A stretch of DNA of 64,000 nucleotides from an uncultured Acidobacteriaceae bacterium (lineage in GTDB: Bacteria > Acidobacteriota > Terriglobia > Terriglobales > Acidobacteriaceae): assembly GCA_964528615.1 (NCBI GenBank), contig CAZGSU010000024.1, positions 10,459-74,458 on the forward strand, read 5' to 3'. Positions within the stretch are counted from its first letter, which is position 1; each line of letters opens with the position of its first letter. Of the stretch, positions 9,262 to 62,035 are shown one piece after another. Both the position numbers and the translations under genes were made by a program. The notes under the pieces are model-generated. The model did no database searches. It was not told the DNA's origin and saw only the letters and a list, made by a program, of their open reading frames with translations.

Positions 9262-9437
9262 TAGTCTTTAGTCGTCGGCCGTCAGTCGTTAGAAAAACAG
9301 TTGCCGGTCGTCAGTCGTCCGTCCTCAGTCGTCAGGAAAACAGCCTTCAGTCTTTGTTCTTTAAAAACCAGTTGTCGGTTTTCTGTTGTCAGTTGTCAGA
9401 AAGGCTGAAGACTGACGACCGAAGACTGCCGACTGCC
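9262..9437. repeat. heptad-repeat element, family B (unit CAGTCKT): four direct blocks plus one inverted block
   Basis: Direct blocks at 9262-9292, 9298-9335, 9341-9361 and 9369-9399, separated by A-rich linkers. Inverted block ctgaagactgacgaccgaagactgccgactgcc at 9405-9437. Confidence 0.9.
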
Positions 9438-12560: not shown

Positions 12561-13349
12561 ATGAAAACGCACGAGCCGGCGTTACTCGATTTGCAGAACG
12601 TCACCGTCATGCGGGGGGAGAAAGTCGTTCTGGAAAACTTCAGTCTCCGCATTCGCAATGACGAGCATGTGGCGATTCTGGGACCGAACGGCTGCGGGAA
12701 ATCCACACTGATTAAGACGATCACACGTGAATGTTATCCCGTCGCAGAGGAAGGCTCCTCGATGACCATTCTGGGACAGGAGCGCTGGGATGTTTTCGAG
12801 CTGCGCTCCATGTTGGGCATTGTCACAAACGATCTAATGTCCATGTGCACCGGACGTGCCTATGGACGCGACGTTGTCCTGTCCGGTTTCTTCAGCAGCA
12901 CCCGCATCTTTCCGCATCACAGCGTCGACCCCAGACACCGGGAACTGGCTGATGCCGCCCTCGAGCGCTTGCAAATATCCCACCTCGCCGAACACCCCGT
13001 CGCCGAAATGTCGTCGGGAGAAGCCCGCCGCGTGTTAATCGCCCGCGCCCTGGTCCACAAGCCGCGAGCTTTGTTGTTCGATGAACCGACCAACTCTCTG
13101 GATGTCTTCGCACGCCACAGCCTTCGTCAGACCATGAGGTCGCTGGCGAAGGCGGGAGTTGGGATCATTCTGGTGACGCACGACCTTTCTGACGTGATTC
13201 CGGAAATCGAACGCGTGCTGCTGATGTCGAATGGACGGATCGTAGCCGAAGGGCCGAAAGCTCGGATGCTTCAACCAGAACGGCTGGAAGGCCTGTTTGG
13301 AATCAAGGTGGAGCTGGCCCACCACGATGGCTACTACCATCTATGGTGA
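12561..13349 (+). CDS. ABC transporter ATP-binding protein (no adjacent permease)
   Basis: Walker A GPNGCGKST, signature MSSGEARR, Walker B LLFDEP. Confidence 0.85.
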   Translation: MKTHEPALLDLQNVTVMRGEKVVLENFSLRIRNDEHVAILGPNGCGKSTLIKTITRECYPVAEEGSSMTILGQERWDVFELRSMLGIVTNDLMSMCTGRAYGRDVVLSGFFSSTRIFPHHSVDPRHRELADAALERLQISHLAEHPVAEMSSGEARRVLIARALVHKPRALLFDEPTNSLDVFARHSLRQTMRSLAKAGVGIILVTHDLSDVIPEIERVLLMSNGRIVAEGPKARMLQPERLEGLFGIKVELAHHDGYYHLW

Positions 13350-15242
13350 GGCCGCGGAAACCGCTTTCATGGCTTCTGAAGACTGGCCAGATTTGGCTTC
13401 CGTCTTGAAGTCGCGGAGCGAGAGTTCCAGCCCGCCGTAATCCGGATGATCATTGTGATCGATCGTGAAGGCAATATCGATGCTGTCGCCGAGGAGCAAG
13501 CCAGCCTGTTGACAACGCTCGGCCATGTGCCAGCCAAGCGCGTTGAAGAGGATGGTGTTTTGCCGGTTGTCCGCAAGCTCTCTCCGGTCGCTGCGCCGAA
13601 TCGCTGCCGAGTCGGGATCGCACCGAGGCGTGGTCAAGATAGCCATGTCTGCAGTGTTGGATTTGGAGCCCAGCTTCAACTTGATGTGTTTGTCTTTGAG
13701 CACGCGGGGAGGGGCCACCAGGCAGACCTCGCGGGCGGTAAACACGGGTTGAGGATTTCCCACGCCGAAGGGTTGCAGGCGTTGGAGCGCCTGAAAGAGC
13801 TCGGGAGTCACCTGGTCAAGGGACAGGTTCGCATCGTAATTGAGCCTTGGCTCGAAGTCGGCCAGGGTCAGGCGCGCGCGGGCGTAGGCATCGAGATGAG
13901 TGCGCAGCTCGGGCACGCTGCCGGCTGGCAACGAGAAGCCAACCGCATGAGAGTGCCCGCCGAAACGGGTGAACAATCCGGCGCAGGATTCTAGCGCGTT
14001 CAGCAGGTGGAATGACGAGATGGAGCGCCCCGAGCCGTGGGCCTGCTCGCCATCGCACGAGATTACGAGCGCTGGGCGTCCATAGCGCTCCACCACCCGT
14101 GTGGCGGTGATGCCGATCACTCCGCGGTGCCAACTCTCGCCATCAATCACAATGCAAAAGGCGTCGTGCAGCGCCGGGTCTTCTTCGAAGCGTGACTCGA
14201 TGGATTTCAGGATGCTGCGTTCTTCCTCCTGACGATGGCCGTTAAGCTGGTCGAGCCGATTGGCGATCTCGCGTGCCCGCACCGGATCTTTCACGCTGAA
14301 AAGTTCGATGACGTCGCGGGCCACATTCATGCGACCGGCGGCGTTGATGCGCGGCGCCACACGGAAAGCGACCTCTCCCGCAGTGAGAGCTCGACCGCTG
14401 AGCTTCGCCACCTCCAGCAAGGCTTTGAGGCCGGGATTGACCGGCGATCGAAGGCCTTCCAATCCCAGTTTGGCAAAGACGCGATTCTCTCCGGTGAGCG
14501 GCACCGCGTCAGCGATGGTCGCAATCGCAACCACCTTCATGAACGAATTCAGCAGGCGGGCTCGATCCTTCTTCGGGGTTCGGCGTTCGATCAGACCCTG
14601 CGCGACTTTGAAGGCGACACCCGCGCCGCACAATGCTTTGCACGGGTACGCACAATTCGGCTGATTGGGATTGACCACGGCCAGCGCAGCCGGGATTCCC
14701 TGCGGGCCCGGAAGGTGATGGTCGGTGACGATCAAATCCACGCCCAGCCGGCGGGCCGTCTCCGCCGGAGCAAAGGCGCGGATACCCATGTCCACGCTGA
14801 TGATCAGCTTGATGCCGGCGGCGGCGGCCTGCTCGATGACATCGTCGCGCATGTCATAGCCGTCGCGGATGCGGTGGGGCACATGGAAATCGGCCGTGCC
14901 GCCGCACAGCTCAATCGCGGTCTTGAGTATGACGATCGCGGTCGTGCCATCCACGTCGTAGTCGCCGTAAATCAGAATGGATTCTTTGTTCTCGATGGCA
15001 GCTTCGATCCGGTCGACCGCGGCCTTCATGCCAGTCATCAAGTAAGGCGAATGCAAATGAGCGAGCGAAGGCGCGAGGAAGCGCTCCGCCGCTTCGGCTC
15101 CGCTGATACCGCGCATCACCAGCAGCGGACTGATTGTGGCGACGAGCTGAGGGTTTTTCAGTCCGAGAGAAGGTTGAGAGCTTAATTCCGCGGAAAGACA
15201 GTCGACAATAGACGAGTCAGCGGACTTTGAGACCCAGCGCAT
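13341..15242 (-). CDS. recJ: single-stranded-DNA-specific exonuclease RecJ
   Basis: DHH-family motifs GDYDVDGTT and LIVTDHHLPG, followed by DHHA1 GGHSHAVG. Confidence 0.92.
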   Translation of the reverse strand: MRWVSKSADSSIVDCLSAELSSQPSLGLKNPQLVATISPLLVMRGISGAEAAERFLAPSLAHLHSPYLMTGMKAAVDRIEAAIENKESILIYGDYDVDGTTAIVILKTAIELCGGTADFHVPHRIRDGYDMRDDVIEQAAAAGIKLIISVDMGIRAFAPAETARRLGVDLIVTDHHLPGPQGIPAALAVVNPNQPNCAYPCKALCGAGVAFKVAQGLIERRTPKKDRARLLNSFMKVVAIATIADAVPLTGENRVFAKLGLEGLRSPVNPGLKALLEVAKLSGRALTAGEVAFRVAPRINAAGRMNVARDVIELFSVKDPVRAREIANRLDQLNGHRQEEERSILKSIESRFEEDPALHDAFCIVIDGESWHRGVIGITATRVVERYGRPALVISCDGEQAHGSGRSISSFHLLNALESCAGLFTRFGGHSHAVGFSLPAGSVPELRTHLDAYARARLTLADFEPRLNYDANLSLDQVTPELFQALQRLQPFGVGNPQPVFTAREVCLVAPPRVLKDKHIKLKLGSKSNTADMAILTTPRCDPDSAAIRRSDRRELADNRQNTILFNALGWHMAERCQQAGLLLGDSIDIAFTIDHNDHPDYGGLELSLRDFKTEAKSGQSSEAMKAVSAASP

Positions 15243-15268
15243 GAGCTAAGAAAATTTAGGAAGATCCG

Positions 15269-15293
15269 TGTGGCGCGGGCGCCCCCGCCCGCG
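15269..15293 (+). repeat. GC-rich REP-like 25-mer hairpin, copy 1
   Basis: tgtggcgcgggcgcccccgcccgcg. Stem cgcgggc/gcccgcg with a 6-nt loop. Confidence 0.85.
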
Positions 15294-15296
15294 GCC

Positions 15297-15387
15297 TTTG
15301 ACTTTGACTTTCAGTCTTTGATTCTCAGACTCTGACTTCAGACTTTGACTTCAGACTTAATTCTCAGACTTTGACTCTCAGACCTCG
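15297..15387. repeat. direct heptad-like array, family E (TTGACTT / CAGACTT)
   Basis: About 13 degenerate units: tttgact ttgactt tcagtct ttgattc tcagact ctgactt cagactt ... No inverted arm. Confidence 0.85.
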
Positions 15388-15399
15388 ATTTCCATCCCT

Positions 15400-15425
15400 C
15401 CCGGGCGAGCGCGTCCGCGCCACAT
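15400..15425 (-). repeat. REP-like 25-mer, inverted diverged copy
   Basis: The reverse complement atgtggcgcggacgcgctcgcccggg matches 22 of 25 positions of the copy at 30916. Confidence 0.7.
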
Positions 15426-15432
15426 CAAGTCT

Positions 15433-15987
15433 TCAGATTTCTTCGTCCGGTCCGGGACCGTCGATGGGGATGCCGCCGAAGTCTTCGGACAGCTCCAGCA
15501 AGCGCTGATAATGGTCGTACCAGTCGGTGGAGGCTTCGTAGATCATCATGATGCCCTGGTGGGCGAAGCCCAGCTGCACAAACCCGGTCTTGCCCACGTA
15601 AGTCCGCAGCCAGCGGGCCTCATCCACATCTTCGTCGTTGGTGAACTCGAGGTTACCCAAACGTTCGACCATCTGGTCGAGCTCTTCGCGGCGCAGCGTC
15701 CAGGCATCCATGGTGAGGAAAGGCGCGGCCGCGGCCTTGGCCAGTTCCACGAAATCCTTCCAGCTGTCGGGGTTGTCCTCTGTTTTCCAGATTACGCTCT
15801 GCACTTCTTCATAGTCGACGTAACCATGGAAGCGGCGCATGCCGTGGCCCTCGATGAAGGCAACCATGTCATCTTTGAGGCCTGCCAGATTGTCGGGTGC
15901 GGGAGACATCGGTTTATTTCTGCCATTGTATGCCTGTTTTTGAACAGCAGCTACTAGCTGCTGGTTACTAGCGTCTGGCTTTTTCAC
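15433..15987 (-). CDS. hypothetical acidic protein
   Basis: 184-aa ORF with good coding appearance. An alternative start is at 15909 (MSPAPDN). No family recognised. Confidence 0.55.
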   Translation of the reverse strand: MKKPDASNQQLVAAVQKQAYNGRNKPMSPAPDNLAGLKDDMVAFIEGHGMRRFHGYVDYEEVQSVIWKTEDNPDSWKDFVELAKAAAAPFLTMDAWTLRREELDQMVERLGNLEFTNDEDVDEARWLRTYVGKTGFVQLGFAHQGIMMIYEASTDWYDHYQRLLELSEDFGGIPIDGPGPDEEI

Positions 15988-16749: not shown

Positions 16750-17508
16750 TCACAGCACCTGCTCGACGCCGCTTCCTGATCGGCTGGTCAGCCATTGATA
16801 ACGGGGCGTGGCGCGGCGCTCGCGACGAGTACCAACGTTACCCCGGCTCATCAGGCTGGCGGGATGTTTTTCAGCGGTCACCTGGTGCCATCCGCTGCCG
16901 GAGGTCACATCGAAGGCCCCGATGTATCCGCCGGAAAGCAATTGCAATGGCGACTGGATGTGGTTGACCTGGTCAAATTGCGTGGATCCCTTGGTGCGGA
17001 AATCCTCAAACCAAGCCGGGAAAACTAAATCTGAGACGCGCACGATGCCGATTTCATAGCCATCGGCGTCTGACTCGCAGGCATCGCAAACTTCGTACGC
17101 GTAGCGTGTGCCGGCATTGGCCGCGGTCTGCAACAGCACCGACAGGTTGATGTTGGGATCAGCCAGCATTTCGAGAAGTTCGTGGCTCGCCGTGACTGAC
17201 CAGGTAAGCCCGTATTTCAGGTCGGTTCCGGCAAATACTTTCCCGATGGGCAGACCGTCAGGAGTGAGGTCGTGGTAACCGAGCGCGCCCGCCTGATCGG
17301 AATCGTCGAGGATAGCGAGCCACCACGTTCCTTCCGGTGGACTTGCAGTTCCCGGGATAAAGTTAAGTTTGGCGTCGATTCCCCAGACTGGCCGGAAATC
17401 GTTGCTCACCTGTTTCTGCAGAGCATCGACCACGGGCCTGATCTCGCTGTCGTTAAGTACCGTAGTAGCGTTGACAATGGAGATATTAACGGGAGTGATT
17501 TGAGACAT
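16750..17508 (-). CDS. hypothetical protein (HELLE motif)
   Basis: 252-aa ORF with ATG start. Contains WSVTASHELLEMLADP. No family recognised. Confidence 0.6.
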   Translation of the reverse strand: MSQITPVNISIVNATTVLNDSEIRPVVDALQKQVSNDFRPVWGIDAKLNFIPGTASPPEGTWWLAILDDSDQAGALGYHDLTPDGLPIGKVFAGTDLKYGLTWSVTASHELLEMLADPNINLSVLLQTAANAGTRYAYEVCDACESDADGYEIGIVRVSDLVFPAWFEDFRTKGSTQFDQVNHIQSPLQLLSGGYIGAFDVTSGSGWHQVTAEKHPASLMSRGNVGTRRERRATPRYQWLTSRSGSGVEQVL

Positions 17509-30915: not shown

Positions 30916-30940
30916 TGTGGCGCGGGCGCCCTCGCCCGCG
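30916..30940 (+). repeat. GC-rich REP-like 25-mer hairpin, copy 2
   Basis: tgtggcgcgggcgccctcgcccgcg, beginning 7 nt after the OPT stop. Confidence 0.85.
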
Positions 30941-51766: not shown

Positions 51767-51796
51767 CAGCTGTCAGCTCTCAGCCTTCAGCTAGAC
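51767..51796. repeat. short direct heptad array (CTSTCAG type)
   Basis: cagctgt cagctct cagcctt cagctag ac. Confidence 0.7.
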
Positions 51797-55660: not shown

Positions 55661-55685
55661 CAGCCTTCAGCCTTCAGCCGTCAGC
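55661..55685. repeat. short direct heptad array (CAGCCKT) (infA-rpmJ spacer)
   Basis: cagcctt cagcctt cagccgt cagc. Confidence 0.75.
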
Positions 55686-59477: not shown

Positions 59478-59540
59478 GCTCTCAGCACAGCTATCAGCTC
59501 CCAGTCTTGCTGAGGACTGATGACTAACGACTTAGGACTG
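59478..59540. repeat. heptad-like inverted arms (CTCAGCW type) (rpmD-rplO spacer)
   Basis: gctctcagcacagctatcagctcccagtc / gctgaggactgatgactaacgac. Confidence 0.7.
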
Positions 59541-59750
59541 AACTATCTCCACCAGATGCGGCACCTTGGCCACCATGCCGCGGATGGCCGGATTGTCAGG
59601 CCGCTCGATCACCTGGTTCAGCCGGGTGAAACCCAGCCCCTTCACCACCAGCTTCTGCTGGACGGGAGCGCAAATGGCGGAGCGCACCCACTTCAACTGG
59701 ATCTTGGCGCCGCCGCCCGCATACGTTTTCTTGGCCAATTTATTGGGCAT
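59532..59750 (-). CDS. rpmD: 50S ribosomal protein L30
   Basis: IQLKWVRSAICAPVQQKLVVKGLGFTRLNQ, plus operon position. Confidence 0.93.
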   Translation of the reverse strand: MPNKLAKKTYAGGGAKIQLKWVRSAICAPVQQKLVVKGLGFTRLNQVIERPDNPAIRGMVAKVPHLVEIVQS

Positions 59751-62010: not shown

Positions 62011-62035
62011 TGTGGCGCGGGCGCCCTTGCCCGCG
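62011..62035 (+). repeat. GC-rich REP-like 25-mer hairpin, copy 3 (rpsN-rpsH spacer)
   Basis: tgtggcgcgggcgcccttgcccgcg. It differs from the other copies only at the two loop positions. Confidence 0.85.

Follow-up and report, generated by a model that had tools for sequence, protein, structure and literature searches.

A probable REPIN-like doublet with an expanded tail array upstream of recJ in an uncultured Terriglobales genome

Introduction

In the spacer between recJ and a conserved hypothetical gene of an uncultured acidobacterium, two inverted copies of a GC-rich 25-mer enclose an array of short tandem units that all run in the same direction. The locus raises the question of what kind of element this composite is, and of how the array came to lie inside it. 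An initial annotation had taken it for a MITE-like unit with REP inverted repeats, and had suggested that the array might be a snapshot of how heptad arrays are seeded or mobilized. REPINs and RAYTs have been described by Bertels & Rainey 2011 (PMC3116915), and the diversity of REPs by Nunvar et al. 2013 (PMC3686654). A literature search for REP or heptamer repeats of Acidobacteria gave no specific result.

The host genome, G000, is a Terriglobales (Acidobacteriota) MAG of 4.82 Mb in 155 contigs, with 58% GC and a completeness of 92%. The window, meaning the whole 64,000-nt stretch that was analyzed, is contig C24:10459-74458 of G000, and positions without a contig name refer to it.

Results

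Layout of the unit

The unit measures 156 bp (15269-15424) and sits within a 190-bp spacer (15243-15432) between two minus-strand genes. The features of the locus, and two further copies of its REP in the window, are as follows.

13341..15242, minus strand: recJ, with DHH, DHHA1 and RecJ_OB domains; downstream of the unit on the transcribed strand
15243..15268, minus strand: recJ leader, 26 nt, outside the element; with 15425-15432 it sums to 34 nt, the size of an empty spacer
15269..15293, plus strand: left REP, with a 5' TGTGG head, an 8-bp GC stem (CGCGGGCG/CGCCCGCG) and a 4-nt loop; perfect family consensus
15294..15311, plus strand: conserved REP tail GCCTTTGACTTTGAC(TTT), common to REP subfamilies with different stems; array seed
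15297..15387, plus strand: tandem array of some 6-7 units of 13/14 nt (TCAGACTTTGACT), all in the same direction and with no inverted arm
15388..15399, plus strand: non-repetitive right end of the inner region (…CTCGATTTCCATCCCT), common to the orthologous elements in the genome G001 and in a metagenome contig (three-way alignment)
15400..15424, minus strand: right REP, inverted and decayed, with 3 substitutions relative to the consensus
15433..15987, minus strand: ORF184, a conserved 184-aa hypothetical gene; upstream of the unit on the transcribed strand
30916..30940, plus strand: singlet REP of the same family, without tail, 1 mismatch to TGTGGCGCGGGCGCCCCCGCCCGCG
62011..62035, plus strand: singlet REP of the same family, without tail, 2 mismatches to TGTGGCGCGGGCGCCCCCGCCCGCG

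ORF184 has no Pfam or NCBIfam match. Relatives of it are encoded by 556 stretches in genome contigs, and the 80 listed are almost all from Terriglobia/Acidobacteriota.

The left 25-mer TGTGGCGCGGGCGCCCCCGCCCGCG was found exactly at 15269-15293, and its recurrence at 30916 and 62011, where shuffles expect 0 copies, bears out the initial annotation. The inverted arm is equally real: its reverse complement, TGTGGCGCGGACGCGCTCGCCCGGG, is identical to the 30916 copy at 22 of 25 positions. Its span of 25 nt is 15400-15424, one position shorter than had been reported (15400-15425). Two of the three substitutions in the right REP disrupt its own stem, as read directly from the sequence. The two arms are complementary at 87% over 23 nt and enclose 106 nt.

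The enclosed array had been counted as about 13 heptads. Its same-direction character stands, and TRF reported it at 15300-15383 with a period of 14, 6.2 copies, 79% matches and a score of 105, together with a period-7 sub-run at 15325-15358. A description as 6-7 units of 13/14 nt suits the array better than one as 13 independent heptads. Within +/-200 nt, it has zero reverse-complement 7-mers; the combination of a 7-nt period with an inverted partner arm, by which heptad-hairpin or STRR-like arrays are recognized, is therefore not found here. The absence of an inverted arm had been thought unique in the window, which was mistaken, as the same test found no such arm for the arrays at 9369-9399, 51767-51792, 55661-55685 and 59510-59541.

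A dispersed REP family arranged in convergent pairs

Copies of the REP in G000 were counted by substitution-only matching to the degenerate consensus TGTGG[C/G]GCGGGCGCCC[T/C]CGCCCGC[G/C]. The census, spread over many contigs, comprised 170 copies at <=4 mismatches, of which 91 had <=1. Each of three Markov-simulated genomes gave 0-1 matches at <=4 mismatches, so the similarity of the inverted copy in the unit lies beyond chance. The TGTGG head was present in 105 of the 170 copies, with TGTAG/GTAGG variants in others. About 20 of the 170 constitute a second, GTAG-headed bipartite family, and 149 of the TGTGG type remain.

Across the 170 copies, stem positions 6/25 read CG in 82, GC in 67 and AT in 4, against CC in 2 and GG in 7, while positions 11/20 read GC in 157 and AT in 7. 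These compensatory changes at both pairs support the predicted 8-bp stem. In shape, a 25-nt imperfect palindrome with a tag next to the stem, as in its dispersed high copy number, the repeat is thus a REP. The family was present in all 41 genus genomes searched, at 3-140 copies each, and a reversed-pattern control gave 0.

Neighboring REP pairs less than 400 bp apart in G000 were convergent, with heads outside, in 32 of 33 cases. The search for further REP-bounded units that the initial annotation proposed was thereby successful, yielding about 31-32 convergent doublets. Their gaps range from 24 to 108 nt (median 62.5), the 106 nt of the unit being among the four largest. Convergent pairs account for 42% of REP copies. 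Singlets are the commoner form, with 87 copies to 31 doublets (2.8 to 1), and doublet REPs, with a mean of 1.56 mismatches compared with 1.25 for singlets, are not better conserved.

Two observations concern variant REPs. The bipartite family consists of GTAGGGGCGGGCGCCCTCGCCCGCC followed directly by a second hairpin, CAGCCGAGCAAAGCTCGGCAG, and is exemplified at C14:3304, C17:5106, C49:12035 and C95:24970 among its roughly 20 copies in G000. A related form of it occupies the ORF184-recJ spacer of the genus relatives L027, L033-L035 and L040-L044. Separately, the doublets at C22:~16830-16880 and C73:~15285-15330 of G000 have a right REP split by the same insert of about 25 nt (CGCGGGCGAGGGC-CCCTTCGACTTCGCTCAGGGCAGGT-CCGCGCCACA), which is either a nested insertion or a REP variant.

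Occupancy of the ORF184-recJ spacer

Among about 90 orthologs, many ORF184-recJ spacers are empty, at 0-36 nt. Others hold CTTTGCG/CGCAAAG hairpin arrays, a REP type of the form GGACGGGCG…CCGAGCGAAGCTCGG, GATTGTT hairpins, GTCATCCTGAGCGAAGCGAAGGATC elements or GTAG-headed REPs. When the 156-bp unit is subtracted, the G000 spacer comes to 34 nt, the size of an empty site. The comparison with relatives that had been suggested for this spacer thus revealed both empty sites and sites filled differently.

The same doublet was found at the same site in G001, the closest relative, where the element is 117 bp long, and in the metagenome contig Ga0075021_10000136 (L201), where it is 90 bp long. In each of the three pairwise comparisons, the flanking genes share 88-89% identity along most of their length, and the ORF184 part is 93% identical between G000 and the metagenome contig. 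At the junctions, the flanks of the three copies read …ATCCG| on one side and |TCAAG, |CAAGT or |CAACA on the other.

The target-site duplication that was looked for at these junctions was absent from all three copies, which identifies the unit as a REP doublet (REPIN-like) and not as a MITE of the TIR/TSD type. The description as a MITE-like unit with REP inverted repeats was essentially right in its outline and has to be amended on this point. A classical MITE, that is, a DDE-transposon with an internal deletion that keeps its terminal inverted repeats and is flanked by a target-site duplication, would account for a short non-coding unit bounded by terminal inverted repeats. Nevertheless, the arms are themselves hairpins and match the flanks of a Y1/HUH gene described below, not IS ends; together with the missing duplication in every orthologous copy, this leaves a classical MITE with next to no credence.

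Two further features of the spacer were observed. Across Terriglobales lineages, the position (window 15243-15432; L008-L098) behaves as a landing hot spot, holding at least five unrelated palindromic families or nothing. The apex of the CTTTGCG/CGCAAAG hairpin, GGTCAAAGGCTTTTAACC (L011, L013-L015, L021, L025 and others), includes a stretch complementary to the nine bases with which the REP tail opens (GCCTTTGAC), a likeness that may be a coincidence or may reflect a shared origin.

Probable origin of the array in the REP tail

Many REPs in G000 are followed by a GCYTTTGAC(T)TTGA tail, and the array continues this tail, GCCTTTGACTTTGA, seamlessly. Genus-wide BLAST matches span the REP plus its tail (query 626-669) at 91-100% identity, and sister REP subfamilies with different stems carry the tail as well. 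An unexpanded sister doublet at C145:2285-2359 has a 25-nt spacer, GCCTTTGACTTTGATTTTCAG-CCCT (spacer GCCTTTGACTTTGATTTTCAGCCCT), which corresponds to the two ends of the inner region of the unit joined without the repeats.

The orthologous elements show the same relationship. The inner region is 67 nt long in G001, and one indel of 39 nt (3 x 13) within the array accounts for the difference from G000. In the metagenome contig the inner region is 40 nt long and contains no array; both of its arms are perfect REPs, and the orthologous right arm is perfect in G001 too. Since the inner region measures 40, 67 or 106 nt in three lineages, the array has changed length in place. The direction of this change, expansion as opposed to contraction, is inferred by parsimony with respect to typical doublets, the three lineages being approximately equidistant. 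Tails have also been extended elsewhere: a doublet of a sister subfamily in G034 carries an independent expansion of 13 nt x 10.4, contiguous with the tail of its right REP, and another in G048 carries a 45-nt duplication that includes the tail.

Genome-wide, TRF detected 859 arrays with a period of 6, 7, 13, 14 or 21 in G000, among which the array of the unit is the sixth longest (88 nt against a median of 29). Only six of these loci abut a REP, five of them on the tail side. The other 853 lie away from any REP and show no sequence relationship in their units. One of the six, C22:16780-17030, is a second doublet enclosing same-direction heptads. The claim that the two repeat systems are combined at a single place consequently holds within the window and fails for the genome. 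The interpretation of the array as a snapshot of heptad-array seeding or mobilization is not upheld either, given an in-place expansion of the REP tail, a period of 13/14 nt and contact with a REP in six of 859 arrays.

These data also bear on the possibility of an accidental composite, in which two REPs landed independently around a pre-existing heptad array, or of REP tails acting as a general seed of heptad arrays. Both repeat systems favor intergenic DNA, the REP-adjacent arrays lie mostly on the tail side, and the CTTTGCG hairpin apex in the spacers of relatives resembles the REP tail. Such an origin is nevertheless very improbable: the array begins within the conserved tail, the element of the metagenome contig has no array, the unexpanded sister doublet possesses the same inner start and end, nearly all arrays of the genome are remote from REPs and unrelated in their units, and the period is 13/14 nt rather than 7.

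As a separate observation on short-period arrays in G000, TRF listed 568 of period 7, 255 of period 14 and 55 of period 21, compared with 128 of period 6 and 168 of period 8. Period-7 arrays are thus strongly over-represented, and only about one-third have a clear inverted partner in an exact 7-mer test.

Predicted folding of the unit

On the transcribed strand, the arms are predicted to form a long, interrupted stem that encloses a mostly unpaired loop of about 106 nt. The RNA fold has a calculated energy of -75.7 kcal/mol, against -58.6 +/- 4.2 for shuffles (z = -4.07), and the DNA fold of the unit is similar (z = -2.81). A scan of the region for intrinsic terminators (a GC hairpin followed by a U-run) gave 0 terminator-like sites, and Rfam gave 0 matches at E <= 1. 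One promoter-like match in the region, on the plus strand at the recJ start, was judged irrelevant.

The strength of the predicted stem invites a functional reading, in which the unit has been selected for its structure in the ORF184-recJ transcript or DNA (as an mRNA stabilizer, processing site, insulator or attenuator), the hairpin being what matters and the REP identity being incidental. Other hairpin-forming repeats fill the spacer in many relatives, and E. coli REPs are known to stabilize upstream mRNA (PMC3733652). The arms are moreover well preserved in two of the lineages (perfect in the metagenome contig, 1 mismatch in 50 nt in G001) despite a flank divergence of about 11-12%. On the other hand, many relatives have spacers of 0-36 nt and no hairpin, the region has neither a terminator pattern nor an Rfam family, the inner region has no fixed length (40 to 106 nt), and the G000 right arm is losing its pairing. 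That the site is occupied by repeat families unrelated to one another suggests that it is permissive for landing. On balance, a selected structural role is unlikely. Pairing of the arms on the ORF184-recJ transcript may, on the folding model, have an incidental effect on mRNA stability; nothing indicates a selected function.

Association with a RAYT-like transposase gene

A search for RAYT or Y1 genes, advised in the initial annotation, detected genes of the RAYT type, with the REP-flanked clade intact in the closest relative and decayed in G000. In G001, gltX and a sulP-like gene enclose a gene for an HUH/Y1 protein of 179-204 aa. The REP of the unit occurs upstream of this HUH/Y1 gene, and a REP doublet with a GCCTTTGACTTTG tail follows immediately downstream. 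Among 40 genus genomes, orthologs at >=69% identity occurred at 10 loci, and all 10 had the REP of the unit on both sides within 170 bp at 0-2 mismatches. None of the paralogs at 52-58% identity was flanked, except that of G008, by a related REP subfamily (5 mismatches).

The flanked clade has the invariant residues D86, H87 and H89 (…DHVH…) and Y152, N156, P157 and V158 (EYIRQNPV). Its profile found E. coli TnpA-REP (PDB 4ER8) as the best PDB match (E 3.1e-8), followed by ISDra2 TnpA at 1e-5, and the HUH motif and catalytic Tyr of 4ER8 both aligned with the clade. The flanked gene of the relatives therefore combines an HUH motif and a Tyr with a similarity to TnpA-REP that exceeds its similarity to IS200/IS605 TnpA. 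TnpA-REP acts on the E. coli REP/BIME system, its substrate being a tagged REP hairpin in single-stranded DNA (Messing et al. 2012, PMC3479197). It is the best solved-structure relative of the flanked clade, but the similarity is remote (36.5 bits). A PDB search with the single G001 sequence gave no match, and only the profile reached 4ER8. The flanked protein narrowly missed the cut-offs of NCBIfam NF047646 (77.3 against 80 bits) and of Pfam Y1_Tnp (22 against 23).

At the syntenic gltX-sulP locus of G000 (C21:29404-29548), the RAYT gene is cut to a stump of about 50 N-terminal codons, with a degenerate REP upstream and an intact REP downstream. No other copy of the flanked clade was found in this genome at its 92% completeness.

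REP abundance does not follow the gene closely. In G015, G036, G039 and G014, 119-140 REP copies were counted, yet no Y1 gene with this REP on both sides; in these four genomes, REP populations seem to persist without a cognate RAYT. Over the genus genomes, mean copy numbers of about 77 and 60, by presence of the RAYT ortholog, indicate no clear relation. As abundance does not track the ortholog, the link to the RAYT is a strong positional association and not a demonstrated dependency.

G000 has five or six Y1/RAYT-like genes of its own, three of which exceed the NF047646 cut-off. They were considered as the cognate enzyme and rejected, as none has the REP of the unit within 700 bp; they carry other hairpins instead (CCCAC…GTGGG and similar). 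The top NF047646-scoring RAYTs across the genus, including that of G000 contig C82, were likewise discarded because the REP of the unit does not flank them.

Around the RAYT-like genes of G000 at C82:4200-4228/4880-4900, C72:17909-17935 and C80:3832-3862, long CCCAC…GTGGG hairpins form brackets that overlap the coding ends, which recalls the acidobacterial 'TIRYT' arrangement (PMC3733652). In addition, three RAYT orthologs (L134 in G005, L135 in G002 and L138 in G052) contain their own REP inside the coding frame, where it translates as …GEGARP… downstream of the N-terminal part and ahead of the HUH motif.

Discussion

Taken together, the data are probably best explained by a REPIN-like doublet of a RAYT-associated family that was inserted once, whose tail array then expanded, and which is now an immobile fossil in G000. 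The doublet would have entered a spacer of about 34 nt in the common ancestor of the three lineages, likely by RAYT-mediated single-strand transposition, a route that would leave no target duplication. The slippage-prone REP tail (GCC-TTTGAC-TTTGAC…) would then have gained units of 13/14 nt by replication slippage, giving rise to the array. Having lost the cognate RAYT, G000 would now carry an immobile element with a decaying right arm. The unit belongs to an already known kind, REP/REPIN-RAYT, and is an ordinary small bacterial mobile repeat.

The likeness to REPINs extends over several features. The unit consists of two short palindromic REPs, inverted, with a spacer of tens of bases and one predicted hairpin. 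Its family is dispersed, with copies running into the hundreds, one HUH/Y1 transposase gene has these REPs at its flanks in relatives, no target duplication is made, and presence or absence at orthologous sites differs between related genomes. The convergence of 32 of the 33 neighboring pairs and the pairing of the arms of the unit are what is expected of inverted doublets that fold as one hairpin. In contrast, Bertels & Rainey 2011 (PMC3116915) describe REPIN doublets as the prevailing form and as more conserved than singlets, and neither was found in G000, which in both respects departs from canonical Pseudomonas REPIN populations. The host belongs to Acidobacteriota and not to Proteobacteria. 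Doublet spacers here are not conserved except for the tail motif, and the tail is an expanding microsatellite. The cognate RAYT has been lost in G000 and apparently in many members of the genus with >100 REPs.

The unit may also be compared with the GTAG-tagged REPs and 'HH dimers' of Di Nocera et al. 2013 (PMC3733652), who recorded a GTGG tag variant in Opitutus terrae and conserved short 'tails' at the untagged end of GTAG REPs. Common to both are a tetranucleotide tag beside a 6-9-bp stem and dimers with tags outside and spacers of 20-100 bp. The tag here, however, is mostly GTGG with GTAG in the minority, and the tail is repetitive and 14 nt or more in length. For Acidobacteria, the same paper gives only TIR-flanked 'TIRYT' genes, not REP-flanked ones as found here. 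Relative to BIMEs, there is no evidence in the present elements for IHF or gyrase sites between the REPs. With cyanobacterial STRR heptamers and the heptad hairpins of G000, the array shares short tandem units in intergenic DNA; it differs in its period of 13/14, the lack of an inverted arm and its origin in a REP tail, and does not belong to the heptad-hairpin class.

A more far-reaching proposal is that the REP tail GCCTTTGACTTTGA… has a function within the mobile unit, for instance as the cleavage or target site of the RAYT, that its recurrent expansion inside doublets is one route to the short-period arrays of Terriglobales, and that some 'heptad hairpins' are REPIN interiors that outlived their REPs. 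This proposal is decidedly improbable.

REP/REPIN-RAYT systems are best documented in Proteobacteria, and the present family extends their host range to an uncultured soil genus of Acidobacteriota. The occurrence of >100 REP copies in genomes where no REP-flanked RAYT was found bears on the debate over whether REPINs need a RAYT to persist. The allelic series of 40, 67 and 106 nt shows how the interior of a doublet can grow by slippage of its own tail. In annotation, a unit of 'REP plus heptads' such as this one can be treated as ordinary repeat DNA and not as a new system.
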